Assembly: GCA_964420065.1 (NCBI GenBank)
Contig: CAYQQK010000003.1
Location: 20,478-84,477, forward strand
Length of the DNA stretch: 64,000 nucleotides
Direction: 5' to 3'
Source of the DNA: an uncultured Syntrophomonadaceae bacterium
GTDB taxonomy: Bacteria > Bacillota > Dethiobacteria > DTU022
Both the position numbers and the translations under genes were made by a program. Shown one piece after another: positions 944 to 34,352 of this stretch (position 1 is its first letter; the number at the start of each line of letters is the position of its first letter). The notes under the pieces were generated by a model, which was not told the origin of the DNA, made no database searches, and saw only the letters and a program-made list of their open reading frames with translations.

Positions 944-949
944 AATAAG

Positions 950-18010: not shown

Positions 18011-19417
18011 ATGAGGCTACGAGTCGAAAGAGATTATTTGGGTGAACTGAGTATTCCCGATAAGTCACTTTACGGGATTCAGACCTTCCGGGCGGTACAA
18101 AACTTTCCTGTTACCGGTCTGAAACTGGACCGGGATCTGATCATGGCTCTGGGAATTGTCAAAGGGGCAGCGGCACAGGCCAACTTAATACAGGGTAGCC
18201 TCGACCCAAAAATCGCCGAGGCGGTAATTGAGGCTGCGGCGGAAATAGCGGGCGGGAAGCTGCTGGAACATTTTCCGGTAGACCCGATCCAGGGCGGAGC
18301 GGGGACATCGATGAATATGAATATCAACGAAGTCATTGCCAACCGGGCCATCGAAATTCTAGGCGGGAAACGGGGTTATTATCACCTTGTATCTCCAAAC
18401 AGCCATGTCAATATGTCGCAATCAACCAATGACGTCATCCCCACCGCTGCCCGCATTGCCGCATTGAAAAAAACGGGGATGCTTCTGGAGACAGTTGATC
18501 ATACCATCGCCGTGCTGCAACAAAAAGAAAGGGAATTTGATGATTGTGTCAAAATTGGGCGAACCCACCTCCAGGACGCGGTCCCGATCCGGCTCGGGCA
18601 GGAGTTCGGTGCCTATGCCGCGGCTGTTACGAGAGCGCGGGAAAATATTGTTACGGCTTGTAGCGGTCTCGAAGAGATCAACATCGGTGCGACGGCTGTG
18701 GGAACCGGGTTGAACGCCGATCCGGGCTATGTCCGGACCACGGTGAGAATATTGCGCGAATTGTCCGGTTTAAACTTGAGGCTGGCCGGAAACCTGGTTG
18801 ATGCGACCCAGAACGAGGACACTTATGTTGTTGTGTCGGCCTCGTTAAAGCAACTGGCCGTGGTCTTGAGCAAGATGGCCAACGATCTCCGGCTCATGGC
18901 TTCAGGGCCACGCTGTGGTTTGCATGAAATTTATCTGCCCGAGGTCCAGCCCGGTTCATCGATCATGCCGGGCAAAGTCAACCCGGTTTTGCCGGAAACC
19001 GTGAACCAGGTTGCCTTCCAGGTTATCGGCAACGATGCTACGATCTGCATGGCCGCTGAAGCGGGACAATTCGAACTCAACGTCATGGTTCCGGTGATCT
19101 ATTTCAACCTGTTTCAGTCATACGAAATTATGACCAACGTTCTTCGTCCTTTCATCGATCACTGTCTGAACGGGATTAAGCCCAACCGGGAGCGTTGCCG
19201 GGATTATGCCGAAAAAAACGCCGGAGTGGCGACGGCACTGAACCCCTATATCGGGTATGAAAAAGCCTGCCGGGTTGCCCGTGAAGCGATGGAAACGGGC
19301 CGGACGGTGCGGGAGATAGCCATGGCTGACAATCTATTTCACCCCAAAAAATTGGACCAAATTTTAGATCCCGTGAAGATGACCATGCCCGGCATAGCCG
19401 GCAGGGAACCTCAATAA
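18011..19417 (+). CDS. aspA: Aspartate ammonia-lyase / class II fumarase family
   Basis: GSSIMPGKVNP signature, N-terminal ERDYLGE..YGIQTFRAVQNF, 468 aa. Confidence 0.75.
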   Translation: MRLRVERDYLGELSIPDKSLYGIQTFRAVQNFPVTGLKLDRDLIMALGIVKGAAAQANLIQGSLDPKIAEAVIEAAAEIAGGKLLEHFPVDPIQGGAGTSMNMNINEVIANRAIEILGGKRGYYHLVSPNSHVNMSQSTNDVIPTAARIAALKKTGMLLETVDHTIAVLQQKEREFDDCVKIGRTHLQDAVPIRLGQEFGAYAAAVTRARENIVTACSGLEEINIGATAVGTGLNADPGYVRTTVRILRELSGLNLRLAGNLVDATQNEDTYVVVSASLKQLAVVLSKMANDLRLMASGPRCGLHEIYLPEVQPGSSIMPGKVNPVLPETVNQVAFQVIGNDATICMAAEAGQFELNVMVPVIYFNLFQSYEIMTNVLRPFIDHCLNGIKPNRERCRDYAEKNAGVATALNPYIGYEKACRVAREAMETGRTVREIAMADNLFHPKKLDQILDPVKMTMPGIAGREPQ

Positions 19418-19509
19418 TGAAACGGTACTTAATAATGCTTGAATTTTGACGAAAGAAACCGTAGAGGAAGGGATGGCGCCTGTAACCGTGGCAATACGAG
19501 GTGACCTGA

Positions 19510-20718
19510 ATGCGAAAACTACCTTTATGGGCCTTGCGACCCGGCATGGAAGTAGCCCGGCGGGTCTACGACGGCAACGGTTTTTTGCTTTTGAACACCG
19601 GGGTTAAACTAAGACGGGCCTATATCGAGGGGCTGAAGGCTCACTGTATTCCCGCAATCTATATTGTTGATGATCTTATTCCAGACGTCCAAATTGTAGA
19701 CGTGATCCTTGATAAAACTCGACGGCGGGCCACCAGCCTGGTCCGCAAAATTATTTGTCAAGCACAACAATCGCCACAAAAAAACAAAAAGGAACAGGTA
19801 TTTCTTCCCCGGAGAGAATTGGAAACCGTTCTGGAGGAAATTATTTCCCAACTGCTCCACAACCGTCACCTGGCGATCAATATGACGGATATTCGCAGTG
19901 CGGATAGCTATACTTTTTCCCACTCGGTGAACGTAGCCGTCCTGGCAATAGTGACTGCAGCCGCCATGGGGTTGTCCCTTTCCGAGCTGCACCGGATCGG
20001 GCTGGGTGCGTTGCTGCACGATCTCGGGAAAACAAAAATTCCGCCTGCCATTCTGAACAAACGGACCCCGCTCCGGAGTGAAGAGATGGAACGGATTAAA
20101 CAACACCCGGCCGATGGTTACCGGATGTTGCAAACACAAAACTTTGGTTCCGCCGCCGCTTTGGTGGTTTATCAGCACCATGAACGCATTGATGGCAGCG
20201 GTTACCCCGACGGTATCACCGGAACAGAGATCGAACTTTTCTCCAAGATCGTCGCTGTAGTCGATGTTTATGACGCCCTGGTTTCCGATCGCCCGTATCG
20301 CCCGGCTTTTCCGCCACACCAGGCGATGGAGATTATCCAGGCCGGTAACGGCAGTTTTGATCGGGGTATTGTTGATAGGTTTCGCTATCATGTTCCGGCT
20401 TTCCCCGTGGGGACGATCGTGGCATTAAGTGACGGTTTTATCGGTGTGGTCGTTCAAAACACGGTTGGTTTTCCAACCAGTCCCCGGGTGCGAATCTTTT
20501 GCCGGCTTGAAACTTTTGAACCGGTAGTTCCTTTTGAAATAAATTTAGCCGACTCCCTTTCGGTGGTTGTAATCAAAGTCCTCGATGACCGGGAACTGCC
20601 TGATCCGTTGCCGATCCACGAATCCTGTCATGCAGCCAAACACAAGGGAAGTGCAAACATTCCGGCGCTGCACGGTGGAATCAGCAAGGCAAACCGTAGG
20701 GAAAAACCAACGGCCTAG
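19510..20718 (+). CDS. HD-GYP domain c-di-GMP phosphodiesterase
   Basis: HD motif (LLHDLGKTKIP) and HHERIDGSGYPDG (GYP) motif. Confidence 0.8.
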   Translation: MRKLPLWALRPGMEVARRVYDGNGFLLLNTGVKLRRAYIEGLKAHCIPAIYIVDDLIPDVQIVDVILDKTRRRATSLVRKIICQAQQSPQKNKKEQVFLPRRELETVLEEIISQLLHNRHLAINMTDIRSADSYTFSHSVNVAVLAIVTAAAMGLSLSELHRIGLGALLHDLGKTKIPPAILNKRTPLRSEEMERIKQHPADGYRMLQTQNFGSAAALVVYQHHERIDGSGYPDGITGTEIELFSKIVAVVDVYDALVSDRPYRPAFPPHQAMEIIQAGNGSFDRGIVDRFRYHVPAFPVGTIVALSDGFIGVVVQNTVGFPTSPRVRIFCRLETFEPVVPFEINLADSLSVVVIKVLDDRELPDPLPIHESCHAAKHKGSANIPALHGGISKANRREKPTA

Positions 20719-20729
20719 GGGGTAGCATC

Positions 20730-22529
20730 GTGAACCGGTCAGGGAACAATGGTCTGGATCAACCGGGTCAGGTTACGGTGATCAAGGGCGAGGCTAAAGT
20801 AATTGATCCTTGCGGGGCAGGCAGCACGGCCTGCATTTGCCCCGGTAAAGGGGTGTCCGTGCTCATTAACGGGGTCAAAATCTTCCGGCGTACACCCGTT
20901 TACTCCACCGATCGGATTCAAATTGAGACTGCGGGCAGCGTGGAACCGGCCAAGGTTTCCGTCCGAATTGCCCCCGACGGGATGTCAGCGGAGGCGGTGT
21001 TGTTCCCTCCGTTAACGGTTACCCATACACTGCCCGACTATCCGCCTTCGCCCGATCTCGAAATCGATGTTGTTGCCCGGGAAGAATACGGCGCCCTGTC
21101 ACTGGAGGAGGCTCTCGGCTTGCTGAGAGAACAGGGGGTTACCTTTGGGCTGGACGAAAAGGCGATTACAGAGCTGCTAAACAAACCCGGTGACTGGGGC
21201 GAGGTCGCCCGGGGTCGCCCGGTGGTGCCCGGCCGCGACGGTTGGGTCGAACCGCAGCATCAAGAATTGTTAAAAAAAGTTGTGTACGGTGAAAATGAAA
21301 ACCGGGTTGATTACCGGGAACGTTTTAAAATTTTACATGTGCAAACAGGCGACCTGCTGGCCCGCATTTGTCCCCCGGTTCCCGGGACGGTCGGGAAGCA
21401 GGTCACCGGTCGCGAAGTAGCAGCCCCACCGGTCTTCCCGGCGGAGGTCCAATGTGGAAAAGGGGCGACACTAAGTCCTGATGGGAGCCAAGTGTTCGCC
21501 AACCGGGTTGGAGCTCCGGTTTATCGGAAAGGCAAGATCCATCTCTTCCGGGTGGACAATCTTTATGTTCACCAGGGCAACATCGATATTCGCAGCGGCA
21601 ACACTGCTTTTCAGGGACATCTCAAGATTCAGGGTGATATCATGGAAGGCATGTCTGTTTCGGCCGAGGGCGAAATCGAGATTGCGGGCCATGCGACCGG
21701 GGCCAATATTTCGGCTGAGGGGCAGGTCATCATCAAAAATAATTGCATCAACTGCCATATTGAAGCCGGTCGAAAACAGATTGTCCGGAATGAATTTGGA
21801 GCTTACCTGAAGGAAACGATTGAGGTGATCGACAATGTTGGCGCCGCCTGCCGGAAGATTATCAGTACCCTGGAAAAACGCGGTCAAAAGGCCGGAGACC
21901 GCCTGCCCTTGATCATGCGCATGGTCGTGCAGAGCAAATTCCCAGCCGCGCCGCAACAGGTAATGGATAATATAGACAAAGCGGAGCGACTGAAACAGTT
22001 TTTGCCGGAAAAGGTTCTTGATTCCCTGCATTATTGCGCCGGTTTTTTTGGGGCATTACAGAATGGGGGCCGTCCGGTCGATTTTACAATGTTGAAGGAG
22101 ATACGGATCGGGCTGGCCCGGGCCGTCGCCTACCTCGATGAAGGCGAAATGGAAGGGATGGGCATCGTGGCCCATTACGTTCAAAACAGCACCCTGCTCT
22201 GCACCGGGGATATTACCATTTCCGGCCCGGGAGTCTACAATTCTACTTTAAAATGCAACGGTGCCGTCCGGGTGGAACGCATTTTTCGCGGTGGTAAAAT
22301 CGGCGCCGGCGGCGACGTCTGGATCGGTAAGGCAGGCACGGCCCGCCTTTCCGTCCAACAAGGGCTGATCCAGGTCCCCCCCGGGAACAAAATCCATCTC
22401 GGCCTGGCCTATGAAAACATGAAAGTGCAGATCGGACCCTCTTTTTATACCCTGAAACAGACCCTGACCGGGATCTGCCTTGCCCTCGATCCCGATAGTC
22501 TGCAGATCCGGATCCAACCCCGCTCTTAA
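20730..22529 (+). CDS. FapA-family (DUF342) flagellar assembly protein A-like, beta-helical
   Basis: 599 aa with C-terminal repetitive beta-helix-like segments (VSAEGEIEIAGHATGANISAEGQVII...). Located immediately upstream of flgM. Confidence 0.55.
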   Translation: MNRSGNNGLDQPGQVTVIKGEAKVIDPCGAGSTACICPGKGVSVLINGVKIFRRTPVYSTDRIQIETAGSVEPAKVSVRIAPDGMSAEAVLFPPLTVTHTLPDYPPSPDLEIDVVAREEYGALSLEEALGLLREQGVTFGLDEKAITELLNKPGDWGEVARGRPVVPGRDGWVEPQHQELLKKVVYGENENRVDYRERFKILHVQTGDLLARICPPVPGTVGKQVTGREVAAPPVFPAEVQCGKGATLSPDGSQVFANRVGAPVYRKGKIHLFRVDNLYVHQGNIDIRSGNTAFQGHLKIQGDIMEGMSVSAEGEIEIAGHATGANISAEGQVIIKNNCINCHIEAGRKQIVRNEFGAYLKETIEVIDNVGAACRKIISTLEKRGQKAGDRLPLIMRMVVQSKFPAAPQQVMDNIDKAERLKQFLPEKVLDSLHYCAGFFGALQNGGRPVDFTMLKEIRIGLARAVAYLDEGEMEGMGIVAHYVQNSTLLCTGDITISGPGVYNSTLKCNGAVRVERIFRGGKIGAGGDVWIGKAGTARLSVQQGLIQVPPGNKIHLGLAYENMKVQIGPSFYTLKQTLTGICLALDPDSLQIRIQPRS

Positions 22530-22575
22530 CTTTATTCTTTTTCTTGCCGATAGATGTGGTGAGGAGGGATTCCTG

Positions 22576-22863
22576 GTGAAAATAAAACCGGACCATGCCC
22601 TGCCGATCGGTCGACTCCCGGCTCGTGAAAACACGCGCGCCGGCCGGCCTTGCGGCGGCACCCCCCCGGGGGCGGGAATAGAACAGAAACAGATATCCGG
22701 CATGGCCGCCTTTTTAAAGGCTGAACTGGAAAAGGCAGAGCATGAAACCGACCCGTCCCGGGCTGCCCAGCTCCGAAATTTGCAAGACGCTATTGAACGC
22801 GGCGTCTACCGGACCGATCCGGCGCAGCTGGCCCGGGCCATGCTGACTCTGTTCAAACGCTAG
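22576..22863 (+). CDS. flgM: Anti-sigma-28 factor FlgM
   Basis: C-terminus LRNLQDAIERGVYRTDPAQLARAML matches the FlgM sigma-binding helix. GTG start after a GAGGAGGG RBS. The ORF-track start (22480) is too long for FlgM. Confidence 0.7.
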   Translation: MKIKPDHALPIGRLPARENTRAGRPCGGTPPGAGIEQKQISGMAAFLKAELEKAEHETDPSRAAQLRNLQDAIERGVYRTDPAQLARAMLTLFKR

Positions 22864-23043
22864 CGGGCCTCCCCGCCCACCCTGCGGGAGATCAGCTTAA
22901 GGGCAGCGCTGGGCCCCGAATCAAGGTTTTCGTTTTTTACGTACGCCCGGGACGGGATCCTCCGGCCGCTGCGCTCGTGACAGCAAGAGCACAGTGGGAA
23001 GGGCGGGGGCTCAACGATCCAAACGCCGGGAAAGGAGAGTTGG

Positions 23044-23550
23044 ATGGTGCACGATCCGATGACCCGTTCTGCTTCGGTTTCAGCCGAGCTCGAGGAGATC
23101 TTGCAGGAAGGGGTTGCCCTTCTGGCCGGGTTGCTTTGTTCCGAGGAGACGCTACAAAAACAGTTGATTCAAGGCGACTACCGCGCCATTTCCGCGACCG
23201 CCGGGGAACGGGACGAGCTGCAACGCCGCCTGGCGGCTTTCGAAACAAGAAGAGAGAAGTTTTTTCCACGGGGGACAAAAATCGGGGACGGCCTGGTCCA
23301 GACGGACACTGTACTGGCCCCGGGAGGGACGGGCGGTCGGGAACGGCTGCAGGCGCTGTTGGGGCAATTTCGCGAGGCGTTGCTGCAAGTTTACGCGCTG
23401 CAAGGAATAAACCGGGAACTGCTTCGGGAAAGGTTACGTTTTACCCGGGAGATGCAGGCCTTGCTTTCAGGCGACAAAGCCTACAACGACCGGGGTGAAC
23501 CGGCATCCGCCGTGCAGGAGGATGTGGCCCGGCTCGATCGCAACTGTTGA
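23044..23550 (+). CDS. FlgN-like flagellar export chaperone
   Basis: 168 aa helical protein at the flgM-flgN-flgK-flgL position, preceded by an AAAGGAG RBS. Confidence 0.45.
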   Translation: MVHDPMTRSASVSAELEEILQEGVALLAGLLCSEETLQKQLIQGDYRAISATAGERDELQRRLAAFETRREKFFPRGTKIGDGLVQTDTVLAPGGTGGRERLQALLGQFREALLQVYALQGINRELLRERLRFTREMQALLSGDKAYNDRGEPASAVQEDVARLDRNC

Positions 23551-23565
23551 GGAGGAAAGAACGGT

Positions 23566-24972
23566 ATGACTATATTTGGAAGTATGGAGATTGGACGGCG
23601 GTCTCTTCGCGCCCAGCTGAAGGGGATGGAAGTTAGCGGTCAAAACGTGGCTAATGCCAACACTCCAGGTTACAGCCGGCAGCGGGTCGACCTGCAGGCC
23701 ATTGCAATCCCCCTGGTGCCGGGAATACCGCTTTCTCCGGGCCGCGGCGTCAAAGTAGCGGCTGTGCAGCGCATCCAGAGCCAGTTTTACCGTTCACAAC
23801 TGAACCAGAACCATGGTCATCTCGGTTACTGGGAAACCTGCCAAGAAACCTTCCAGGGGGTTGAAGTGATTTTGATGGAGCCGGAGGAACACGGTTTAAA
23901 TCGGTTGCTGGGTGATTTTTTTGACCTCTGGCACGAGTTAAGCGCCTCCCCCGAAAGCATGGACGTGCGTACCAGCCTGCAAGCACAGGCGGTTACTTTC
24001 ACCCGAACGGTTCAGGAAGTTTATCTGCGCAGCAATGATCTGAGCTTGAGCCTGCAGGAAGAGATGACTCAGCGAGTCGAGGAAATCAATTTTTTAACCA
24101 AAGAAATTGCGGCCATAAATGAAAAGGTGACCCTGATGTACAACCTTGGGGACACCTCGAATGAACTGCTGGACCAGCTTGACCGGGCTGTGGAACAACT
24201 TTCCGCACTGATTGATGTGCAGACTCTCTACCGGTCCAACGGTGTCGTCCAGGTTTTTACTGGCGGACGGATGCTGGTGCAGGACAACCATAGCTACTCC
24301 CTGTCGATCGCCCGCAGCGACGCGGGCGCGATCGACATCCACAGTGATCGCGGTCAGCCTCTGACCCTGCATTCCGGGCGCCTGGCCGCACTGCAGCAAT
24401 CGGTCAACGCCATCATCCCCGATCTGCAGGGCAAGTTCGATCAAATGGTCTGCCGCCTGGTGGAAGAAGTAAACGCGCTGCATCGCGATGGTTACGGTCT
24501 GGACGGAACCGGGGAGCGCAACTTTTTTGAACCGATCGTTGCGGACAGTCTCATCCCCCCTTCTCTGCAGTTTAAACTCTCCGCCGATCTGTTTGGGGTA
24601 GCGGGTTGCGAGCCGGCCCGGGTTGCCGCTGCTTTCGAACCCGGGGAACCCGGCAACGGCGCGAACGCCCTTGAAGTGGCCCGGTTGCGTGAAGCGCTGA
24701 TCATGGAGGACGGCACCGCCTCGATCATCGAATACTACCGCAGCATTGTTGCTTCTCTGGGGGTGGAAGGCCAGGAATGCGAGCGCATGGTGGGGGCTTA
24801 CACCGCGGCGGAGGCGCAGCTTTTTGAGCGCAACCAGGCCATCGCCGGGGTTGACCTTGACGAAGAAATGTTGAACATGATCCAGTTCCAGCATGCCTGG
24901 CATGCCGCTTCGCTTTTTATCAAGAGCGTGGACGAAATGCTGTCCATTTTACTGTATGAACTGGGCCGGTAG
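23566..24972 (+). CDS. flgK: Flagellar hook-associated protein 1 FlgK
   Basis: N-terminal GQNVANANTPGYSRQ motif plus conserved C-terminal helix. Confidence 0.9.
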   Translation: MTIFGSMEIGRRSLRAQLKGMEVSGQNVANANTPGYSRQRVDLQAIAIPLVPGIPLSPGRGVKVAAVQRIQSQFYRSQLNQNHGHLGYWETCQETFQGVEVILMEPEEHGLNRLLGDFFDLWHELSASPESMDVRTSLQAQAVTFTRTVQEVYLRSNDLSLSLQEEMTQRVEEINFLTKEIAAINEKVTLMYNLGDTSNELLDQLDRAVEQLSALIDVQTLYRSNGVVQVFTGGRMLVQDNHSYSLSIARSDAGAIDIHSDRGQPLTLHSGRLAALQQSVNAIIPDLQGKFDQMVCRLVEEVNALHRDGYGLDGTGERNFFEPIVADSLIPPSLQFKLSADLFGVAGCEPARVAAAFEPGEPGNGANALEVARLREALIMEDGTASIIEYYRSIVASLGVEGQECERMVGAYTAAEAQLFERNQAIAGVDLDEEMLNMIQFQHAWHAASLFIKSVDEMLSILLYELGR

Positions 24973-25008
24973 CGGCCGTAAAACACCCGCGCAGAAGGAG
25001 TGACCGCA

Positions 25009-26634
25009 ATGCGTATCACCCACCGCATGATCGCCGGCGGGATCCAGCACCGGCTCGGGCAAAGTCTGAACCGGCTCGAGCGCTATTCCCAACAACTGGC
25101 CACAGGAAAAGTTTTTCAGCGCCCTTCCCAGAATCCGGTCGGCCTGGTCAAAGTGTTGCGTTACAGCACCTTGATCGAGCGCAATGAGCGGTACCGCCTG
25201 AACATGAATGAGGCTGCACGGTGGCTGGAAAGTACGGAAGACAGTCTTCGGGACGCGCTCGATTCAATCGAGCGGCTGCGTGAACTGTGTATCTACGGCG
25301 CCAACGAAGTTCTCACCGCTGCCGATCGCCATGCCCTGGCCCCGGAAACCCTCGAACTGAGCCGTTTTTTGTTCGACCTGGCCAATAAAGAATACAATGG
25401 CCTTTACCTTTTCGCCGGTCACAATACCCTGGAGACCCCCTTCGTGGAACGCAACCTCTACCGGATCGAGGCGGATGAGGATAGCGGCCTTGATCCGGCA
25501 TCGTTGCAGGCCGAAGGTCTTCAGAACGGTACCTACCGTCTCGCTTTGCGGACGATTGCCGGTGAAGCTCATCCGGCGGAGCTGGAAACGGTGCAGGCTT
25601 GTCTGGGCGACGCTGCCGCCGGTTCGATCTTTGGTGCGGCCGTTTCGACAGCGATCGATCCGGAGATCGATCAAAACGCTTCCATTCTGCTCGAGGTGCT
25701 TTCCGCCGACGGCGACACCGGGGAGGTGCGCTACCGCTTTACCGTGCACCGCTATGACCGGGACGGTGCCTATCACTGCGATCGGGGGGAAGCTTCCCTC
25801 GTTTTCGGCGGGCCAGCGGAGCAGTCCCTTGACCTGGGGGGGGGGATCGTGATCGCGGTCGGCGGGTTGGAGACGGCCAGCCCGGCGCAGGCCGGCCTGC
25901 TTGGTGCCTGCGACCGGGCTGTTTTGAACCTGCTTCCGGAGCGCCTGGCCGCTCAGGAATACCAGGAGGTGCGGCTATCCGGTGAGCACTGTGGGGGTGA
26001 GGCCTCATTCCGGCTCGTCTTCGATGCGGGGACGCTGCAGGAAGGAAGCAACCTGGCCCTGCATTACTTTACCATGAATACCTTCCCCCGTTCTCCTTTC
26101 CTCGGGGAGGCCCACCATGGTTCGGTTTCCCTGGGCTTCGGCGGTTCCTTCGTTGCAAGCGACGCGGCCGCTGTTTTTCATTACGACCGCGAAGGTTTCC
26201 CGGTGTACCGGGGTGATGACGGGCGGCGGGAACTGGATATCAGTCCCCACCAGGTCCTGGCGCTCAACCTGACCGGGCAACAGGCTTTCGGGAAGGAACA
26301 GGAGATTTTCCAGGCGGCCCGCGCCGTTTACCACGCTTTGATCGAAAACGATCGAACTCGTCTCGGCGGGGCGATCCTGGACGATCTGGATCACGCCGTC
26401 GATCTGATTTTACAGCGTTTATCCGAGGTAGGGGCGCGCCAGAAAAGGGTCGAGACGATGCAGGAAACCTTGTTTTGCGAAAGCATGCATCTGCGCGAAA
26501 TGCGTTCCCAGGTCGAGGATATCGATCTTGCCCTGACCATTGCCGAGTTTACGATGCAGGAAAACGCCTACCAGGCCGCCCTTGCCACCGCGGCGCGGAT
26601 CATGCCTCTGAGTTTGGTGGACTATTTGCGCTGA
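25009..26634 (+). CDS. flgL: Flagellar hook-associated protein 3 FlgL
   Basis: MRITHRM...LATGKVFQRPSQNPVG N-terminus. The AAGGAG RBS favours the ATG at 25009. Confidence 0.85.
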   Translation: MRITHRMIAGGIQHRLGQSLNRLERYSQQLATGKVFQRPSQNPVGLVKVLRYSTLIERNERYRLNMNEAARWLESTEDSLRDALDSIERLRELCIYGANEVLTAADRHALAPETLELSRFLFDLANKEYNGLYLFAGHNTLETPFVERNLYRIEADEDSGLDPASLQAEGLQNGTYRLALRTIAGEAHPAELETVQACLGDAAAGSIFGAAVSTAIDPEIDQNASILLEVLSADGDTGEVRYRFTVHRYDRDGAYHCDRGEASLVFGGPAEQSLDLGGGIVIAVGGLETASPAQAGLLGACDRAVLNLLPERLAAQEYQEVRLSGEHCGGEASFRLVFDAGTLQEGSNLALHYFTMNTFPRSPFLGEAHHGSVSLGFGGSFVASDAAAVFHYDREGFPVYRGDDGRRELDISPHQVLALNLTGQQAFGKEQEIFQAARAVYHALIENDRTRLGGAILDDLDHAVDLILQRLSEVGARQKRVETMQETLFCESMHLREMRSQVEDIDLALTIAEFTMQENAYQAALATAARIMPLSLVDYLR

Positions 26635-26666
26635 TTCCGAACCTGCACAAAAGGAGGAATAAGGTT

Positions 26667-27104
26667 ATGTCTGCCCAGTCAGACAATGGGCCGGTCGGCC
26701 CGCAAACACCGCCACAATTTCACTTTCCCCGTGGTTTGCCCGGTCTGGACGGGTTTCACCGGTTCCTGGTGAATCCGGTTCCCGGCAACCGTCTTTTCGC
26801 CATGCTCGTTGCCGCCGGCGATCCGGCGGTGGGGCTGATCCTGGTCGATCCCCTGCCCTTCTTTCCGGGCTACCGGGTCGATCTTTTCCCGGTCGACCGG
26901 CGGGACCTGCTGCTGAAGGAGGAGCGGGACCTGGTTATATTTACCACCGTAGCCGTGGACGATCAGGAACTATATACCAACCTCGGCGCCCCGATTCTGA
27001 TCAACGTGATCAGCAAGCGCGGCAAGCAGATCATCCTTCCCGATCGGACGAACCAGTTGCGCGTCCCGCTCGACCCCGGGCCCGAACATTGCGCCGTCTC
27101 TTGA
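26667..27104 (+). CDS. fliW: Flagellar assembly factor FliW (CsrA antagonist)
   Basis: FHFPRGLPGLDGFHRF...TNLGAPILINVISKRG matches FliW. GGAGGAATAAGG RBS. The ORF-track start at 26475 overlaps flgL. Confidence 0.85.
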   Translation: MSAQSDNGPVGPQTPPQFHFPRGLPGLDGFHRFLVNPVPGNRLFAMLVAAGDPAVGLILVDPLPFFPGYRVDLFPVDRRDLLLKEERDLVIFTTVAVDDQELYTNLGAPILINVISKRGKQIILPDRTNQLRVPLDPGPEHCAVS

Positions 27105-27382
27105 AGAGGATTCGCCGCCGGCTTTATTGGGGGGGAAGATCAACGCTTGCCGCATGAATAATGGGAGCAACCCATCGGTGGAGGACAAGGGAACGGACCT
27201 CAAGGGATGGCCCGTTTTTTTGTTTCTGCGAACTTTCTCCTCCGAAAGAGGCAGTTGCCGTTTCGAAAAGCTTGGGGCATCGGGAGAGGGAAAACAGATT
27301 TCGGGGAGGTTTAATGCGGGGGAATAGCGAAATTTGTTCCGGGGGTGAGGTATTGCCTTTCCCGGAAAGGGGTGAGCTGCGA

Positions 27383-27628
27383 ATGCTGGTGCTGACCCGC
27401 AAGAGCGGTGAAAAGATCATGATCGGTGAAGAAATCGAGATCACGGTGGTCGCAGTTGACGGGGAGGCGGTACGCTTGGGGGTTAATGCTCCTCGGGATG
27501 TGCCGGTCTTCCGCAGTGAGGTCTTCGAAGAGATCCGCCTTGAAAACCTGCGTGCGCTCAAGTCTGCGGCGTGCCTGCAAGCGAAACTGGGACGGGGAAG
27601 CGAGGGGGTGGAAAAACCGGAACTTTAA
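27383..27628 (+). CDS. csrA: Carbon storage regulator CsrA
   Basis: MLVLTRKSGEKIMIGEEIEITVVAVDGEAVRLGVNAPRDVPVFRSEV is a canonical CsrA. Positioned fliW-csrA-hag as in Bacillus. Confidence 0.9.
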   Translation: MLVLTRKSGEKIMIGEEIEITVVAVDGEAVRLGVNAPRDVPVFRSEVFEEIRLENLRALKSAACLQAKLGRGSEGVEKPEL

Positions 27629-27685
27629 AACCACCGGTCCGAAACATGGATTATTATTTCAGCCGGCCTGGCCATCAGTGAAAAA

Positions 27686-29665
27686 ATGCGCGGCCAGATC
27701 CGGGGTCTGAACCAGGCCACGCGCAACGCCCAGGACGGCATTTCGCTGATCCAGACCGCGGAAGGGGCCTTGAACGAGACCCACTCGATCCTGCAGCGCA
27801 TGCGGGAACTGGCCGTGCAGGCGGCCAACGACACCCTCACCGCCTCGGATCGGCTCGAGATCCAGAAAGAGATCGACCAGCTCACCGGCGAAATAAACCG
27901 CATCGGCACCACCACCGAATTCAATACGAAGAAACTGCTCGACGGCACCACGGCGGCGCTGACCAGCACCAGTGACCTCAAGACCAAGGTCTACATGCGC
28001 GACGGCCTGCGCGTCATCGACCAGTTCGGCCAGAAAGCGGTCGGCGGGGGCAACTACAAGCTGGAGATCGAAGCCGACCCCGGAATCGGCCAGGTTCAGA
28101 AGACCGATATCATGAAGATCAAGCACGAGCATACGATCAAGGGACCGAATTGGGTCAACGTCGTGCACGTGGGAGAAGAAGGAGAAGAATTTAAAGGACT
28201 GCAAGGACTTTTTTTTGAGAACGAGTACGTTGAGCGAGCGATAATCGGATTCAACTGTTTAGATCCTGATAACTTCCAAGAAGAAGGTGCCTTCGAGGTA
28301 AGGGCTGAATACAGTGAATACTCACCTATCGATGGCAGCCCTGGTAGAACGCTGTCGGTCATTATTATTTTGGATGAGGACGAAAGTACCGAAGCGAATA
28401 TCGCAGAGATAATAGAGCAGATTTTTGATGATGCAATCGAGATTAAAGAGATGCCTGAAGGAACCAGCTTTACGATTAGCGATATTCTCGACGTGCGAGA
28501 GATCGGGCTCGGTGGGAAAATCAAACCGGCCCATATCAAGTTCGGAAATGAAGTCATTGCTGCCGTCCTGGACGAGCCTTTCACCGATACAGCCGCCACC
28601 GCCAACATTGGCGATGTCGCCGATCTGCAAACCCAGCTTTACGACATCGATCGTTTCTGGGATGCCAACGGCAATTTCCTGGTTGAAGATCCGCAGACGG
28701 TTACCCTGGTCCAGGGGGACGGCAACAAGACCTCTTTCACTATCTTCGGTTCCGACACCATCGGTGATGTGGTGAATAAGCTCAATGATGCGATCCATCA
28801 CGGGCTCGGACAGAACGCGATCAACGACAATGCCGGCGCGTATGTCAACTATGTCCCCGCCGAAGGTGAAGCCGCCAAAGGGTTTTTCTCCGTGGCGGGC
28901 ACCATGGTGATCCAGTCGGCCATAACCGGCAAGGACGGCGAGATCGCCTTTATCGGTGATGAGGGTGTGATCAATGCGCTCAGCCTGACCACCATCCAGA
29001 ATGCAAAAAATAATAATTTTACCGCAAATGTCCTTAATGCTCATAACACCGCTGAGGTTGTGGCCAAAGATGTAAACATTACCGGCAGCTTCCTTGTCGG
29101 CGTGGTCCATCCCAACGTGGACGTGAAATTCGACCCGATGACCGGTGTGAAAGTCAGTTTGGTTGAGGAAGGAAGCGATAACGCGGGCGCCTTTGCTTGG
29201 GCCCAGCAAACAACGGTTGAAAACGGAGAGATGTTTCCGTTGGTGGAAAATGTATACATCCACCTATCCGACAATACGATGGTCTTCCAGATCGGGGCCA
29301 ACCCGCTTCAAGACGTGGCTGCCTCCATCGGCGACATGCGCGCCGAGGCCCTGGGAGTGGATAATATTCTTGTCACGAACCGGGGGGTGGCCAACCGGGC
29401 CATCACCCAGGTGGACGGGGCCATCGGCCGGGTTTCCTCGGAGCGGGCCAAGCTGGGGGCGTTGCAGAACCGCCTTGAACATACCATCGCCAACCTGGGC
29501 GTGGCCGCGGAGAACCTGACCGCCGCCGAATCCCGCGTGCGGGACCTTGACTTTGCTTTGGAGATGGTCGAGTTTACCCGGAACCAGATCTTGATGCAGG
29601 CCGGGACCGCCATGCTGGCTCAGGCCAACCTGAAGCCGCAGTCCGTACTGATGCTGCTCGGATAG
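27686..29665 (+). CDS. Flagellin paralog lacking the conserved N-terminal ~46 residues (possible 5'-truncated pseudogene)
   Basis: Nearly identical to the downstream flagellin from codon ~47 ([18 protein letters not shown]...), divergent in the central domain, and nearly identical again in the C-terminal ~350 aa. Homology to the intact copy begins at ~27663. There is no promoter or UTR, and the frame runs on from the csrA stop codon. Confidence 0.6.
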
Positions 29666-29739
29666 TCAGATCGGGTTAACCGGGCCGGGGATGTAAAGGG
29701 ATGGGAAAAGTGGAAACTAGAAACCGGCTCGAAAGAGGG

Positions 29740-29766
29740 TTAACATTTTGGGCGGGTTGACGATAA
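29740..29766 (+). promoter_or_regulatory. Candidate sigma-28 (FliA) promoter of the intact flagellin (TTAA-N15-GACGATAA)
   Basis: Resembles TAAA-N15-GCCGATAA with 2 mismatches, about 130 nt upstream of the ATG. Confidence 0.3.
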
Positions 29767-29858
29767 AAAAGTTAGAGCATCCGTTTCCTACCGAAACGGC
29801 CGTGGAAAGGAGGCCGGGATGACCGGACGGTGCGGCAAGAGACGGGGTTCAAAAAACG

Positions 29859-29892
29859 GCACGGAAGCCGGAATAATCAATCACGGAGGATT
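29859..29892 (+). promoter_or_regulatory. Two candidate CsrA-binding GGA sites in the flagellin 5' UTR, the second overlapping the SD
   Basis: cACGGAAGc and tcACGGAGGAtt are spaced about 20 nt apart. The second covers the GGAGGA SD of the ATG at 29898, analogous to hag BS1/BS2 in Bacillus subtilis. Confidence 0.35.
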
Positions 29893-29897
29893 GAACC

Positions 29898-31952
29898 ATG
29901 AGAATCAATACCAACCTGGCGGCGTTAAACGCCTACCGCAACTTGGTCAACACCGACAACCGTTTGAACAAGTCCCTTGAACGTCTCTCTTCGGGTCTGC
30001 GTATCAACCGCGCTGCGGACGATGCCGCCGGCCTGGCCATCAGCGAGAAGATGCGTGGCCAGATTCGGGGCCTGAACCAGGCCACGCGCAACGCCCAGGA
30101 CGGCATTTCGCTGATCCAGACCGCGGAAGGGGCCTTGAACGAGACCCACTCGATCCTGCAGCGCATGCGGGAACTGGCCGTGCAGGCGGCCAACGACACC
30201 CTCACCGCCTCGGATCGGCTCGAGATCCAGAAAGAGATCGACCAGCTCACCGGCGAAATAAACCGCATCGGCACCACCACCGAATTCAATACGAAGAAAC
30301 TGCTCGACGGCACTACTGCGGCCCTGACCAGCACCAGTGACCTCAAGACCAAGGTCTACATGCGCGACGGCCTGCGTGTCATCGACCAGTTCGGCCAAAA
30401 AGCGGTCGGCGGGGGCAACTACAAGCTGGAGATCCTGGCCGACCCGGGAATAGGCCAGGTCCAGAAGACCGATATCATGAAGGTCAAGCACGCCCATGAT
30501 GTCTGGACCTCGGAGTGGACCGGTGTCATCACCGGAGAAGAAGAATCTTTCCTGCAGGGGATTCTTTTGGAGAACGAGTACGGGATCGAAAATATCGCGA
30601 TCGAATTCGAAGCCGCGTCTGGTGAAAACCAAGAGACAGCAGCAGCAGCCGCGTACGATGATGAAAGTAAAACGGTCACGATCACAGTTACCTTGGGGAC
30701 GGACGGTGATGAGGCAACCTCCGCTACAGTTGCAGAGGTTTATGAGGCGATCACTGGCGTTACAGCTATTGATGATGCCGATTTTGGTATCAATGACATC
30801 CTTGGGCTAGAAGTAAACGAAGCACAAAGTACCGAGGTTTTAACCGCAGCACCCGATGATGTCACCCTGGAGGGCGGTTACCGGCATGTCGGCATCGGCG
30901 ATGTGGCCCACCTCGAAACCAAGCTCAACGATATCGATCGTTTCTGGGATGCCAACGGCAATTTCCTGGTTGAAGATCCGCAGACGATTACCCTGGTGCA
31001 AGGCGACGGTAGTAAGACCTCCTTTACTATCTTTGGTTCCGACACCATCGGTGATGTGGTGAATAAGCTCAATGATGCCATCCATCACGGGCTCGGACAG
31101 AACGCGATCAACGACAATGCCGGCGCGTATGTCAACTATGTCCCCGCCGAAAGTGAAACCACCAAAGGGTTTTTCTCCGTGGCGGGCACCATGGTGATCC
31201 AATCGGCCGTAACCGGCAAGGACGGAGAGATCGCCTTTATCGGCGATGAAGGGGTGATCAACGCGCTCAGCCTGACCACCATCCAATATGCGAAGGATAA
31301 CAACTTTACTGTTAAGGTAAGCAACGCTCACAACATCGAAGAGGTTGTGGCTGAAAATGTAAACATCACCGGCAGCTTCCTTGTCGGCGTGGTCCATCCC
31401 AATGTGGACGTGAAATTTGACCCGATGACCGGTGTGAAAGTCAGTTTGGTTGAGGAAGGAAGCGATAATGCGGGCGCCTTTGCTTGGGCCCAGCAAACAA
31501 CGGTTGAAAACGGAGAGACGCTTCCGTTGGTGGAAAATGTATACATCCACCTATCCGACAATACGATGGTCTTCCAGATCGGGGCCAACCCGTTGCAGGA
31601 TGTGGGCGCCTCCATCGGCGACATGCGCGCCGAGGCCCTCGGGGTGGATAACATCCTCGTTACCAATCGGGGGCTGGCCAACCGGGCCATCACCCAGGTG
31701 GACGGCGCCATCGGCCGGGTTTCCTCGGAGCGGGCCAAGCTGGGGGCGCTGCAGAACCGACTCGAGCATACCATCGCCAACCTGGGCGTGGCCGCGGAGA
31801 ACCTGACCGCTGCCGAATCCCGCGTGCGCGATCTCGACTTTGCTTTGGAGATGGTCGAGTTTACCCGGAACCAGATCTTGATGCAGGCCGGGACCGCCAT
31901 GCTGGCCCAGGCCAACCTCAAGCCGCAGGCCGTATTGATGCTGCTCGGGTAA
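29898..31952 (+). CDS. fliC: Flagellin (large, 684 aa, with hypervariable central domain)
   Basis: [16 protein letters not shown]...[17 protein letters not shown]-terminus and conserved C-terminal [16 protein letters not shown]. Confidence 0.95.
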
Positions 31953-31963: not shown

Positions 31964-31995
31964 GAAACGGGGCCGGCCGGGACCGGCCCCGTTTC
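31964..31995 (+). terminator. Stem-loop terminator after the flagellin
   Basis: GAAACGGGGCCGG-ccggga-CCGGCCCCGTTTC forms a perfect 13-bp stem. The U-tract is weak. Confidence 0.45.
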
Positions 31996-32028: not shown

Positions 32029-32433
32029 TTGGACCGGAGGAAGGTGGAGGGTGTGAAGATCAACGAGATCGACCTGCTGGCGGCGGATCAGCTCCGGGAA
32101 AAAACTTCGCGCCGCGCGGTCAAACCGGCCGAGGGGGCTCAGTTTGATCAAAAGGTAAAGGAGAAGGAACAATCTGCAGCAAAAGTGCCTCCTGCCGACG
32201 GTAGTAAAAAGGCCGAAAGCCTGGACCGGGCCCTGCAGAAGCTGAACGATACCGCCCGGGCCTTTCAACTGCGCCTGCAATTTCAGAAACACCAGGCTTC
32301 GAATCGTTGGATGGTGCGGGTGGTCGACCCGCTCAGCGATCGGGTTCTGCGCGAGATCCCCCCGGAGCAAGTCCTGAACATTGTCGCCCAGATTCAGGAC
32401 CTGATCGGGATTCTCCTGGATGAAAAGTGCTGA
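32029..32433 (+). CDS. flaG: Flagellar protein FlaG
   Basis: C-terminal NRWMVRVVDPLSDRVLREIPPEQVLNIVAQIQDLIGILLDEK matches the FlaG family. The true start may be the GTG at ~32056, after a GGAGGAAGG RBS. Confidence 0.7.
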   Translation: MDRRKVEGVKINEIDLLAADQLREKTSRRAVKPAEGAQFDQKVKEKEQSAAKVPPADGSKKAESLDRALQKLNDTARAFQLRLQFQKHQASNRWMVRVVDPLSDRVLREIPPEQVLNIVAQIQDLIGILLDEKC

Positions 32434-32477: not shown

Positions 32478-34352
32478 ATGAGCCCCAGTGTCAGAGGGCT
32501 GGCTTCGGGTGTGGATATCAACAAGATTCTTGACGAGCTGATGGCGATTGAACGAAGGCCGATCGCCCGCAATGAAGCCCAGATCTCCCGGGCCGAGACC
32601 ATCGCCGGATTGTGGCGCGATCTGACCGTGCGCTTCGACGCCCTGCAGCGCAGCCTTCAGCCTCTGTTGAATCAGGCTACCTTTACCACTGCGGTTGCTT
32701 CCAGTTCGGACCCGGAACGGGTGCGGGTGGCCGTGACCGGACCGGCCGCTACCGGCAGCTACCGTTTGGAGATAGAGCGGCTTGCGACACGCCACGGCGT
32801 CGTTTCGGGCCCGGCGGAAGGGGGGGTGGGGTTGATCGACGATCCCGCTGCAGCCCTGGGCCTGCACGGCACCTTCACTCTGGCCCTGAGCCGTCCGCCC
32901 GAAGCGGTCGGGGAACTGTTTGTAGCGGGCGGGTGGCTGCAGGGCAGCCTTGCGACCGGGTACACCGCGGTGCTGGATGGTAACGCCGCCAGCGTGTATG
33001 CCCCGGCGATCGCGTCGCTGCAATTCGCCGAGGGATTTGAGGCCGGCCGGGAGATCCGGCTCTACCTGGAGGGGTTTACCGGAAGCGACGGTAAAGAGGC
33101 CTGGCAAGAACTGGCCGATTTTTACGGGACGGCAGGACTTCCGGATCCGGGCAATCCCCATGCGGTTATTGGTTGGGATGAGACAACGGCTACCTGGCAG
33201 CTCCTGGACCGGGAGGGTGCCCCTTTTTCCATAACGGGCGATCATCCCCGGGGAAACCTGGCCTTGCGGGCCGAGGTTGTCGGTGAAGGTGGCAACATTC
33301 TTGCCAGCCATCATTTTTCTTTCAAAATTGCCCAATCCTTTACCGCGGCCGGATGGATCACGGTCAAGGCCGAGGATAGCCTGCACCAGATCGCCGGTCG
33401 CATCAACGCCGTCGCCGACCTGACCGGGGTTACCGCCGGCGTGATCAAGCGGGTTGAAGGGGACTGGCGCTTGGTGCTGGAAAGCCGGATCGAGGGCGCG
33501 GCGGGGCAGATCCAGGGGCAACATCTTCTTCCCGCGGGGACGGGGATGGAAACGTATGGTGCGGATGCTATCCTTGAATGCCTCGGCCTGACCGTGCCGG
33601 GGGCGGTGGGCACATTTGTCCAGACTTTCCGGGAAGCCGCCGATGCCTGTTTCACCTTGAACGGGCTTCCGCTGGAACGCGCTTCCAACAGTGTGGCCGA
33701 CCTGATCGCGGGCCTGACTCTGACCCTGTGCGGCACCGGGGAGGTGCGACTGGAGGTGCAGCCTGACCGGGCCGTTCCGCGGGAAGCGATCGAACGCTTT
33801 GTCAATACCTACAACGAAGCCAATTCTCTGGTGCGGGCCATGCTCGAGGAGAAAACCGGGCCGTTGCAGGGGGATCCGACCCTGCTTCGTTTGGAAAGAC
33901 GCCTGCGCTCATTGGTCCACGGGCCGGTGACCACCGGCGGCGACATGCTTTTCCGCAGCCTGGCTGCACTGGGGATCACCTCCGAAAAGGAGAATACCGA
34001 AGGGTATCTTTATCTTGATGCGGCCCGGCTGGAGCGGGCCCTGGAGGAAAGTCCGGAGGCGGTGTTCAGCTTTTTTGCTTCTCCGGCCGGAACCGGCGGT
34101 CTGGCGCGGCAACTGGATCTGTTCACCACCCTGGTTACCGGGCGGGACGGGGTCATCCCCGGGCGGAGGGCTTATCTGGACCGTCAAATTGATCGTATGC
34201 GCAAGCAGATTGAAGCCTGGGAGGAACGGCTGGTCCGACGAGAAGCGAACCTGGTGCGTCGTTTCACCTTCATGGAACAGTACATCTCCCGGGTTCAGGA
34301 ACAGACCGGACTGCTGGCCACATTTGAAATGCAATGGCAAAAAGATCAGTAA
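32478..34352 (+). CDS. fliD: Flagellar filament cap protein FliD
   Basis: GLASGVDINKILDELMAIERRPI N-terminus; 624 aa. Confidence 0.9.
   Translation: MSPSVRGLASGVDINKILDELMAIERRPIARNEAQISRAETIAGLWRDLTVRFDALQRSLQPLLNQATFTTAVASSSDPERVRVAVTGPAATGSYRLEIERLATRHGVVSGPAEGGVGLIDDPAAALGLHGTFTLALSRPPEAVGELFVAGGWLQGSLATGYTAVLDGNAASVYAPAIASLQFAEGFEAGREIRLYLEGFTGSDGKEAWQELADFYGTAGLPDPGNPHAVIGWDETTATWQLLDREGAPFSITGDHPRGNLALRAEVVGEGGNILASHHFSFKIAQSFTAAGWITVKAEDSLHQIAGRINAVADLTGVTAGVIKRVEGDWRLVLESRIEGAAGQIQGQHLLPAGTGMETYGADAILECLGLTVPGAVGTFVQTFREAADACFTLNGLPLERASNSVADLIAGLTLTLCGTGEVRLEVQPDRAVPREAIERFVNTYNEANSLVRAMLEEKTGPLQGDPTLLRLERRLRSLVHGPVTTGGDMLFRSLAALGITSEKENTEGYLYLDAARLERALEESPEAVFSFFASPAGTGGLARQLDLFTTLVTGRDGVIPGRRAYLDRQIDRMRKQIEAWEERLVRREANLVRRFTFMEQYISRVQEQTGLLATFEMQWQKDQ

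Follow-up and report, generated by a model that had tools for sequence, protein, structure and literature searches.

The window analysed here, a stretch of 64,000 nucleotides from an uncultured Bacillota bacterium, carries a flagellar gene cluster in the order flgK-flgL-fliW-csrA-flagellin-flaG-fliD-fliS, in which the flagellin position is occupied by two copies in tandem (Table 1). Both lie inside this cluster, with fliW/csrA, flaG, fliD and fliS as neighbors, and FliD, FliS and the subsequent flagellar genes were also annotated in an independent assembly. The ribosome-binding site of csrA has a pairing dG of -8.2 (most flagellar genes, -6 to -12.7). Glycosylation islands, which the preliminary description had proposed to look for nearby, were absent: Pfam and the gene calls of the independent assembly gave no pse/neu/maf-type genes in or beside the cluster, and the sole glycosyltransferase found was a GT4 enzyme at 13980-16433, ~11 kb upstream. 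Likewise, no inverted repeats of an invertible switch were present in the interval of 26.5-33 kb.

Table 1. Features of the flagellin locus, in coordinates of the 64-kb window
Feature	Position	Strand	Remarks
fliW	26667-27104	+	Pfam FliW E 4.8e-24; FliW also called in independent assembly
csrA	27383-27628	+	81 aa; stop TAA 27626-27628; Pfam CsrA E 5e-22
csrA 3' end plus 31 nt of flank	27585-27659	+	Left edge of duplicated unit; aligns with 29678-29748
Deletion junction	27661-27662	+	csrA flank fused directly to flagellin codon equivalent to residue 44
Copy 1, 5'-truncated flagellin	27662-29665	+	667 in-frame codons plus TAG
Identical 242-nt tract	27707-27948	+	Equals 30072-30313; candidate recent gene-conversion tract
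Copy 1 variable central (outer) domain	28127-28606	+	35 D+E, 10 K+R (acidic); GC3 0.51
Copy 1 C block	28607-29662	+	Family-conserved outer module plus CD1/CD0
Relic of csrA 3' end plus flank	29678-29748	+	Overlaps -35 box of copy 2 promoter
Sigma-28/sigma-D-type promoter of copy 2	29740-29766	+	TTAACATTT-N10-GACGATAA
Two leader hairpins	29857-29893	+	Loops ACGGAA and ACGGAG; RNA fold; second includes ribosome-binding site
Copy 2, complete flagellin	29898-31952	+	684 aa; Pfam Flagellin_N 1-137 and Flagellin_C
Copy 2 ND0	29898-30026	+	
Copy 2 N block	30027-30491	+	
Copy 2 centre	30492-30893	+	
Copy 2 C block	30894-31949	+	
Terminator-like G+C-rich hairpin	31965-31994	+	3' of copy 2
flaG	32029-32433	+	Pfam FlaG; 3' of copy 2
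fliD	32478-34352	+	FliD called in independent assembly

Judged by its sequence, copy 2 is the only complete flagellin gene of the pair. Its match to PF00669 covers profile positions 1-137 of 139 (E 2.5e-50), that is, the complete N-terminal region, its CD1/CD0 part matches PF00700 (E 3.5e-27), and the AlphaFold2 model (pLDDT 77) places the ND0 helix at residues 2-31. The sigma-28-type motif in front of it has no second match on the window's + strand, and the motif TTAACTTT-N..-GTGACGATA also occurs 5' of the flagellins of the closest relatives (L001/L002, L003). Between promoter and start codon lies a leader of ~125 nt with two GGA hairpins and a strong ribosome-binding site (dG -9.5), and no terminator-like hairpin comparable to the one behind copy 2 follows copy 1. 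In Bacillus subtilis, hag is transcribed from a sigma-D promoter, and its leader bears a pair of GGA sites, of which the second covers the ribosome-binding site. Our locus shares with the fliW-csrA-hag locus the gene order, the sigma-D-type promoter and the two GGA leader sites, and by analogy with the hag leader we infer that the hairpins of copy 2 resemble CsrA-binding sites and that copy 2 may be under CsrA control. Unlike in B. subtilis, however, a 2-kb truncated flagellin stands here between csrA and the expressed flagellin, and has taken the place of the native csrA-proximal promoter region.

The flagellin belongs to the large multi-outer-domain class typified by that of Geovibrio thiophilus (PDB 9au6). 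This was the best solved match of copy 2 (Foldseek E 2e-45, TM 0.67, against TM ~0.25 for all other flagellins), and phmmer (E 2.9e-113) aligned copy 2 residues 282-684 with residues 401-793 of the Geovibrio protein, the similarity extending past D0/D1 into the conserved outer (D2/D3-type) module. Both proteins have an acidic outer surface. The Geovibrio type carries an outer layer of D4/D5-type beta-sandwich domains. The central residues 198-281 of copy 2, a beta-rich domain in the AlphaFold2 model, do not align with 9au6 residues 189-400, and the central insertion of the Geovibrio protein, ~210 aa vs 134-160 aa here, aligns with neither of our two centres. The preliminary description had taken both proteins to be unusually large, a view that the family does not bear out: lengths among the 120 best homologues span 658-1193 aa, 9au6 itself has 793 aa, and 650-1100 aa is the normal size for flagellins of the Geovibrio thiophilus type. 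A scan of genome contigs with copy 2 gave no close relative; the best match came from a Syntrophomonadaceae MAG at ~70% identity. The solved relative has been assigned to outer-domain cluster 41, and the G. thiophilus genome, like our locus, holds several flagellin paralogues near one another, although all of those are full length, 793-801 aa (PMC11532411).

Copy 1 presents a very different picture. Its homology to copy 2 sets in 33 nt past the csrA stop, at the codon matching copy 2 residue 44, so codons 1-43 with the ND0 helix, the start codon, the ribosome-binding site, the leader and the promoter are all missing. Flagellin_N (PF00669) was matched at profile positions 42-137 only, short of the complete N-terminal region, and Flagellin_C (PF00700) is complete (E 1.6e-27). 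Of the 120 best homologues, 119 possess residues 1-43, the sole exception being the 659-aa ORF of copy 1 itself, and only one ND0-coding segment, that of copy 2, exists in the window. Near-identical termini, as previously supposed for both copies, are thus not found at the N-terminal side. The 659-aa protein is an artefact of the ORF caller and starts at an internal Met, equivalent to Met52 of copy 2; given the truncation, the 659-aa "flagellin" in a public protein collection (P0002) is a mis-called fragment. None of the in-frame starts of copy 1 is preceded by a ribosome-binding site, and the pairing in front of ATG 27686 (dG -2.7) falls far short of that of copy 2.

ND0 is tied to both type-III export and the filament core, and since it is absent, the product of copy 1 is predicted to be incapable of export and of polymerisation into a filament. 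The lack of promoter, ribosome-binding site, start codon and ND0 argues that copy 1 is a pseudogene or silent copy, which accompanies a single functional gene and could at most serve it as a donor in recombination. This bears on the idea of two functional tandem full-length flagellins, co-expressed or alternately expressed, that exchange domains as the preliminary description had thought possible. Both ORFs are certainly long, open and under purifying selection, and in many relatives a single contig holds at least two complete flagellin genes, but a gene without its 43 N-terminal codons, without an RBS-backed start codon, leader or promoter, and with a truncation junction confirmed by independent assemblies, already contradicts it at the sequence level, and we regard it as extremely improbable.

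A scan for terminators came up empty both between csrA and copy 1 and in 29666-29897, and copy 1 would be transcribed, if at all, by read-through that prolongs the csrA mRNA at its 3' end. On this basis one might imagine that translation of copy 1, beginning at Met 27686 or running through the csrA stop codon, yields a non-exportable cytoplasmic decoy that binds FliW/FliS and leaves CsrA free to repress copy 2. The position of copy 1 directly behind fliW-csrA, the csrA stop in frame with it, its preserved open frame and a CD1/CD0 region 98% identical to that of copy 2 would all suit such a role. Against it, however, speak the missing ribosome-binding site 5' of every in-frame start, the one-in-three chance of an in-frame stop, and the consequence that motility would be kept off by a constitutive FliW sponge despite a complete flagellar regulon. 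We know of no precedent for a decoy flagellin of this type, and consider the scenario very unlikely.

The two direct-repeat blocks that had been called nearly identical are indeed both present. The N block pairs 27662-28126 with 30027-30491 at an offset of 2365 nt, which shifts the previously given second coordinate by ~8 nt, and has 18 differences in 465 nt. In the C block, 28607-29662 pairs with 30894-31949 at an offset of 2287 nt, with 89 differences in 1056 nt (92% identity), and its outer module is conserved in all 120 best homologues. No DNA alignment is possible for the centres between them (28127-28606, 480 nt, vs 30492-30893, 402 nt), in agreement with their description as unrelated, but at the protein level a match of 34% amino acid identity over 126 aa (E 3e-6) identifies them as remote homologues. 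The divergent centre occupies the hypervariable slot of the family and probably forms the outermost acidic surface domain. Outer flagellar domains of environmental anaerobes are thought to mediate adhesion or partner contact. An exhaustive HMMER search of the copy 1 centre against 1.84 billion representatives gave no real homologue; three weak matches to Ig-like/cadherin repeats were dismissed as short, repeat-inflated beta-strand matches. A word-indexed search returned nothing for this centre, an untrustworthy negative, as the query's own protein was missed too.

How, then, did a headless flagellin come to lie behind csrA? The 3' end of csrA with its flank, which terminates in TTATTATTT, a relic of a promoter -35 box, aligns with the region just behind copy 1 at a score of 26, whereas dinucleotide shuffles reached 10.4 +/- 1.9 and none of 500 attained 26. 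This csrA relic behind copy 1 demonstrates a tandem duplication of ~2.37 kb, and the spacing of the alignment shows that ~272 nt were deleted from copy 1. The unit of the old duplication began ~45 nt before the end of csrA and reached slightly beyond the flagellin stop, carrying the csrA 3' end along to leave its relic 3' of copy 1. Copy 1 later lost the ~272 nt that stretch from the spacer separating the -35 and -10 boxes of the promoter to codon 43. An old duplication followed by a 5' deletion, leaving a silent remnant beside the complete copy 2, is in our opinion the best explanation of the locus and a highly probable one, and the near-identical blocks would then reflect common descent under purifying selection together with at least one recent gene-conversion tract.

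The substitution pattern fits well with this history. Both shared blocks are under strong purifying selection (dN/dS 0.057 in the N block; 0.11 with dS 0.30 in the C block), and there is not a single indel in the shared 1521 nt. Polarising the amino acid differences against 118 homologues assigned 8 derived residues to copy 1 and 6 to copy 2, revealing no faster decay of copy 1. Furthermore, the 242-nt tract has zero differences, which indicates recent gene conversion: a stretch of 80 codons without any third-position difference is not expected by chance (permutation P = 5e-5), the remaining shared sequence having a dS of 0.15-0.30. This is direct evidence of sequence exchange between the two copies. 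Purifying selection, the absence of indels and the recent conversion tract together suggest that the truncation is probably recent. Moreover, an intact frame of 667 codons with strongly constrained substitutions is unlike a long-dead pseudogene, and copy 1 may still face some selection.

The proposal that the layout is recombinogenic is supported by its homology arms of 465 nt and 1056 nt and by the conversion tract. As to gene conversion or domain swapping, exchange has left its tract, but a swap could run only non-reciprocally, from the silent into the expressed copy, because the locus would lose its sole promoter and 5' end if the repeats recombined by deletion or by reciprocal crossover. 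No recombinant centres were found, no protein at least 90% identical being present in a collection of 15 billion proteins; exact-protein look-ups of both flagellin ORFs and P0001 gave no record, and metagenome scans were empty for both an exact match to the junction sequence and FlgL.

Obviously, a contig of metagenome origin raises the suspicion that a chimera or mis-join created the apparent truncation or the tandem arrangement, the more so as exact repeats of up to 242 nt are difficult for short reads and per-run assemblies break within both copies. Using the flanking genes fliD, flhA and flgK, we retrieved independent Logan contigs, one of which (SRR8925753_158526, window 13566-27736) crosses the csrA/copy 1 junction with 0 mismatches; the junction with 14.2 kb of flank is reproduced without a mismatch in a separate assembly in two samples (SRR8925753 and SRR8925752), and the junction is real. 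The contig terminates 30 nt into the 242-nt tract, as expected for an exact repeat in the k=31 graph (k=31 being assumed), and the breaks of the per-run assemblies coincide with the ends of exact repeats 31 nt or more in length. Each break is exactly k-1 away from the SNPs on either side of the repeats, which requires that both copies be in the reads. In addition, the diverged csrA relic 3' of copy 1 is a biological signature of duplication and not something an assembler makes. An artefact thus has an almost negligible probability. The 242-nt identity could in part be assembler consensus, but the break of the Logan contig points to an exact repeat in the reads. The pairing of centres with flanks across this repeat rests on the original assembler, with a check by graph logic, in which the alternative pairing leads to a 2.4-kb circle and a promoterless chromosome copy.

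A more attractive competitor holds that copy 1 is a selected silent cassette, comparable with pilS or Proteus flaB and kept as a RecA-dependent conversion donor of the outer-domain segment. The silent cassettes of Neisseria pilS lack a promoter and the 5' segment for the conserved N-terminal assembly domain, and they occur in large numbers at several loci beside a defined G4/sRNA initiation element. In copy 1, too, the promoter and the conserved 5' coding part are missing, and its variable, surface-exposed part likewise sits between conserved stretches able to guide conversion. It differs in encoding a flagellin instead of a pilin, in being the single cassette within the 64-kb window, and in that variation is here a candidate only. 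A canonical G4 motif does lie at 29673-29700, between the cassette and the copy 2 promoter, and might help recombination to start, although it was noticed post hoc, is one of 7 in the 64 kb and derives from the duplicated csrA 3' end.

Two tandem flagellin systems also offer parallels. In Proteus mirabilis, recombination between flaA and flaB yields an antigenically different functional hybrid, FlaAB, according to the passage of PMC10290045 that cites Manos et al. 2004. There, as here, an expressed flagellin adjoins a transcriptionally silent copy with conserved ends and a different interior, the silence of our copy being deduced from sequence. In Proteus, however, the silent ORF is complete and follows the expressed gene, and a deletion-fusion gives a working hybrid, whereas ours precedes the expressed gene and has lost its 5' coding region. 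Here, expression would not survive a deletion between the repeats, a working variant could arise by non-reciprocal conversion only, and no recombinants were observed. Campylobacter jejuni flaA/flaB also form a tandem of highly similar flagellins with intragenomic recombination (as context in PMC5126078 and PMC4811654), but both are complete with promoters of their own (sigma-28 and sigma-54), and neither is truncated.

The conversion tract between the copies and the intact open frame, with dN/dS ~0.1, no indels and no excess decay, speak for a cassette as well. Nevertheless, low dN/dS at a dS of 0.30 is explained more simply by a long-expressed paralogue that recently suffered a deletion, conversion also occurs between genes and dead pseudogenes, and the identical tract spans the conserved ND1 region and not the variable domain. 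No recombinant was seen in the collections searched. Across 84 related loci surveyed, the only other 5'-truncated flagellin was a small decayed remnant, which argues that the truncated-copy layout is not a recurrent design. We therefore think it unlikely that copy 1 is a selected donor, and equally unlikely that an exposed flagellar surface is switched in this way, e.g., for escape from flagellotropic phages or grazers or for a change in adhesion or partner recognition; more doubtful still is the specific proposal of a maintained pilS-like cassette from which conversion would exchange the acidic domain lying outermost on a thick flagellum of the Geovibrio type. If such donor use were true, it would extend cassette-based variation of the flagellar surface from pathogens to free-living or syntrophic environmental anaerobes, which is speculative.

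Returning to the reading we prefer, duplication followed by a 5' deletion, the main value of the present analysis is one of correction: instead of two big flagellins, the locus holds one working flagellin gene and a promoterless copy devoid of ND0. Its history is clean and can be reconstructed, from a duplication marked by a csrA relic, through a deletion of ~272 nt, to a conversion tract, and it illustrates how flagellin paralogues arise, get homogenised and get lost.

The two same-strand open reading frames (ORFs) at 27686-29665 (659 aa) and 29898-31952 (684 aa) were found, through ORF listing and repeat finding, to contain two families of direct repeats with offsets of 2365 and 2287 nt. Global nucleotide alignment of copy 1, the upstream flagellin, with copy 2, the downstream one, defined three zones, i.e., an N block, a divergent centre, and a C block (see the table). 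This alignment agrees with the repeat layout of the preliminary description except for an 8-nt misregistration, while calling the central parts unrelated was too strong, since at the protein level the centres share 34% identity across 126 aa (E 3e-6), a weak but significant kinship. GC3 was 0.51 in both centres versus 0.72-0.87 in the flanking flagellin blocks, and the neighbouring flagellar genes (0.66-0.71) also lie above the centres, which suggests a different history or origin of these segments, or may reflect weaker codon selection on the variable slot.

Positions of the repeat zones and of other features in the window
Feature	Position	Counterpart in copy 2	Strand	Remark
cas2-like ORF	99-368			judged from translation only
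cas4-like ORF	365-943			judged from translation only
cas1-like ORF	950-1858			judged from translation only
CRISPR array	~1983 to 5043			37-nt repeat GTTTCACCAACTACCCCGATCAATAGGGGACTGAAAG, period ~72-74 nt
GT4-family glycosyltransferase, 816 aa	13980-16433		-	weak C5-epimerase-like C-terminal match
N block (copy 1)	27662-28126	30027-30491		18 of 465 nt differ
Centre (copy 1)	28127-28606	30492-30893		nucleotide alignment impossible
C block (copy 1)	28607-29662	30894-31949		89 of 1056 nt differ
Terminator hairpin, G+C-rich	31965-31994			3' of copy 2

DNA reading and protein alignment both place the start of homology in copy 1 at 27662, equal to codon 44 of copy 2 and 33 nt after the csrA stop (27626-27628). 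No in-frame ATG, GTG, or TTG occurs between this stop and the ATG at 27686, the equivalent of Met52 of copy 2, and the Pfam Flagellin_N profile was matched at positions 42-137 alone by copy 1 and at 1-137 by copy 2. Of the 120 best homologues, 119 retain residues 1-43, the sole exception being P0002, the copy 1 ORF itself, and no second segment coding for the N-terminal helical region ND0 was found elsewhere in the 64-kb window. AlphaFold2 modelling of copy 2 (pLDDT 77) puts the ND0 helix at residues 2-31 and the start of ND1 at residue 38, so that, as judged from this model, copy 1 is without the entire ND0 plus the first turns of ND1. Furthermore, the predicted anti-Shine-Dalgarno pairing is -2.7 kcal/mol before the ATG at 27686, -9.5 kcal/mol for copy 2, and -6 to -12.7 kcal/mol for most flagellar genes of the window. 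The csrA stop (TAA, 27626) is in frame with the truncated ORF with no other stop before 27686, and its read-through would yield a CsrA-flagellin fusion, although the chance of such a same-frame coincidence is one in three.

The 232-nt spacer 5' of copy 2 carries TTAACATTT-N10-GACGATAA at 29740-29766, the only such plus-strand site in the window, and the same motif (TTAACTTT...GTGACGATA) is also located 5' of the flagellin genes in the closest relatives (comparison loci L001/L002 and L003); fliA and flgM are present in the flagellar cluster. RNA folding gave a copy 2 leader of two small hairpins with the hexaloops ACGGAA and ACGGAG, the second of which holds the ribosome-binding site, and this leader resembles that of B. 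subtilis hag, which has two CsrA sites. The hairpins are thus putative CsrA sites, which fits the adjacent fliW-csrA directly upstream. With the promoter and CsrA-site calls based on motif conservation and folding, copy 2 is probably controlled by sigma-28 and FliW-CsrA. In the terminator scan, neither the interval from csrA to copy 1 nor the 3' side of copy 1 contained a hairpin comparable to the one 3' of copy 2. For the promoter at 29740-29766, the transcription start is predicted at ~29773-29775, immediately past the -10 box. Additionally, 29848-29877 contains another promoter-like element of degenerate sequence, TTCAAA-18-AATAAT (GCCGGAATAA), at the position matching the sigma-28 promoter of L001 and L003 and ~25 nt 5' of the ribosome-binding site; transcription of copy 2 may begin at two sites, with the long leader arising from the distal one only.

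The arrangement itself was checked in per-run Logan assemblies of the same organism, located via exact look-ups of flanking proteins. SRR8925753_158526 equals window 13566-27736 with 0 mismatches, is also present in a second sample, and spans the junction between csrA and the truncated copy; the junction is not an artefact of the submitted contig. This assembly ends 30 nt past the last SNP before a 242-nt tract identical in both copies, and SRR8925752_34897 begins at 31877, 30 nt before the first inter-copy difference after the last identical run, both break points being as expected of a graph of k=31 (the value assumed) with both copies in the reads. The assembled order appears parsimonious, because the sole alternative pairing across the exact repeat would split off a 2.4-kb circle, with the truncated gene as the only copy remaining on the chromosome.

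How this arrangement came about can be read from the flanks. The stretch 27585-27659, made up of the last ~45 nt of csrA and the adjoining 3' flank, aligns with 29678-29748, directly past the copy 1 stop, with a score of 26 versus 10.4 +/- 1.9 in dinucleotide-preserving shuffles, none of 500 of which reached it; in the same comparison, the flank after copy 2 lacked any csrA-like similarity. This relic behind copy 1 therefore delimits the duplicated unit, one edge lying within the 3' end of csrA and the other slightly past the flagellin stop. The relic ends in the copy 2 promoter, at its -35 box, whose counterpart, TTATTATTT at 27651-27659, precedes copy 1. From the relic start to the N-block start the distance is 77 nt in unit 1 versus 349 nt in unit 2, and thus ~272 nt are missing from unit 1, a loss that took with it the promoter -10 box, leader, ribosome-binding site, start codon, and codons 1-43. 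Identity across the relic is ~70%, in line with the C-block dS of 0.30 (synonymous divergence), which suggests that the duplication is old. In and just 5' of the relic, and so between the stop of copy 1 and the promoter of copy 2, there is a canonical G-quadruplex motif (GGGTTAACCGGGCCGGGGATGTAAAGGG, 29673-29700), one of only 7 on the two strands of the 64 kb; spotted post hoc, it is reminiscent of the pilE G4.

Both copies carry the mark of constraint. The dN/dS was 0.057 for the N block, 0.11 for the C block, 0.046 for the C-terminal helical regions CD1/CD0, and 0.13-0.16 for the outer module, and there were zero indels across 1521 alignable nt. When the 26 amino-acid differences were polarised against 118 homologues, our own tally gave 8 derived residues in copy 1 and 6 in copy 2, so that nothing in copy 1 indicates a long period of neutral decay. 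The bulk of the divergence must have arisen while both copies coded for working protein, which makes the deletion a late event. The identical tract within the N block (27707-27948, 242 nt) comprises 80 consecutive codons without a third-position change (permutation P = 5e-5), which points to a recent gene-conversion tract.

The best homologues, from Syntrophomonadaceae, Pelotomaculum, Thermotogota, Atribacterota, and other anaerobe MAGs, measure 658-1193 aa, so that the size of the two proteins, previously regarded as unusual, is ordinary for the family. All of them share the N block and a ~215-aa module preceding CD1, and their size varies exactly where copies 1 and 2 differ. The closest solved structure is the Geovibrio thiophilus filament 9au6 (Foldseek E 2e-45, TM 0.67; phmmer 2.9e-113), and the gap left unaligned coincides with the variable slot, which is probably the outermost surface domain. 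For the G. thiophilus filament, an outer sheath of two layers, strongly acidic, is described along with several paralogues close by (PMC11532411). The two centres in the window are likewise acidic (35 D+E versus 10 K+R in copy 1, 30 versus 2 in copy 2). Among 1.84 billion representative proteins, nothing emerged as a convincing homologue of the copy 1 centre. A separate word-indexed search with this 177-aa query missed P0002, which contains it at 100% identity, and its negatives on short acidic domains are therefore unreliable. No protein at least 90% identical was found in a large protein collection, and both metagenome scans (exact junction sequence; FlgL) gave zero matches.

Several neighbouring or comparable loci are also worth recording. 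In the closest relatives (~65% identity; L001/L002 4704-12022 and L082-L084), at least two full-length large flagellins lie a few kb apart, each with its own flaG, with DUF8042 and DUF2225 genes between; they do not adjoin csrA, an architecture unlike that of the window. FlhA relatives at 88% and 77% identity are present on short Logan contigs (P0125 and P0126). At L076 17031-17290 (Clostridium acetireducens DSM 10703), a 5'-truncated and internally deleted remnant runs from ~residue 35, its ND1 fused directly to the last ~20 CD0 residues, with a full-length flagellin nearby. In the window itself, a CRISPR-Cas locus occupies 99-5043, the array following the cas2-, cas4-, and cas1-like ORFs, and the GT4 glycosyltransferase, the only glycosylation-type gene examined, lies ~11 kb upstream of the flagellins, outside the flagellar cluster.

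From these sequence features we infer that copy 1 is silent and that an exportable flagellin would be possible from copy 2 only, while csrA transcripts may extend 3' into copy 1, there being no intervening terminator. Given the upstream position of the truncated copy, recombination between the repeats by crossover or deletion would eliminate the sole promoter and the sole 5' end, and with them flagellin synthesis; the expected deletion product would be ~2.3 kb shorter, equal to one repeat unit (2287-2365 nt). A functional variant with an alternative outer domain would be possible only via non-reciprocal conversion from copy 1 into copy 2. Silent copies act as recombination donors in pilS cassettes and Proteus flaB; the logic here would be that of pilS and partly that of flaB, such donor use being hypothetical in this organism. 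The hybrid FlaAB flagellin of Proteus is cited in PMC10290045. Among 84 related loci surveyed, just one further flagellin was 5'-truncated, the short decayed remnant of C. acetireducens (L076, from 17031), and because of this we rank a recently disabled paralogue above a maintained cassette as the reading of copy 1.
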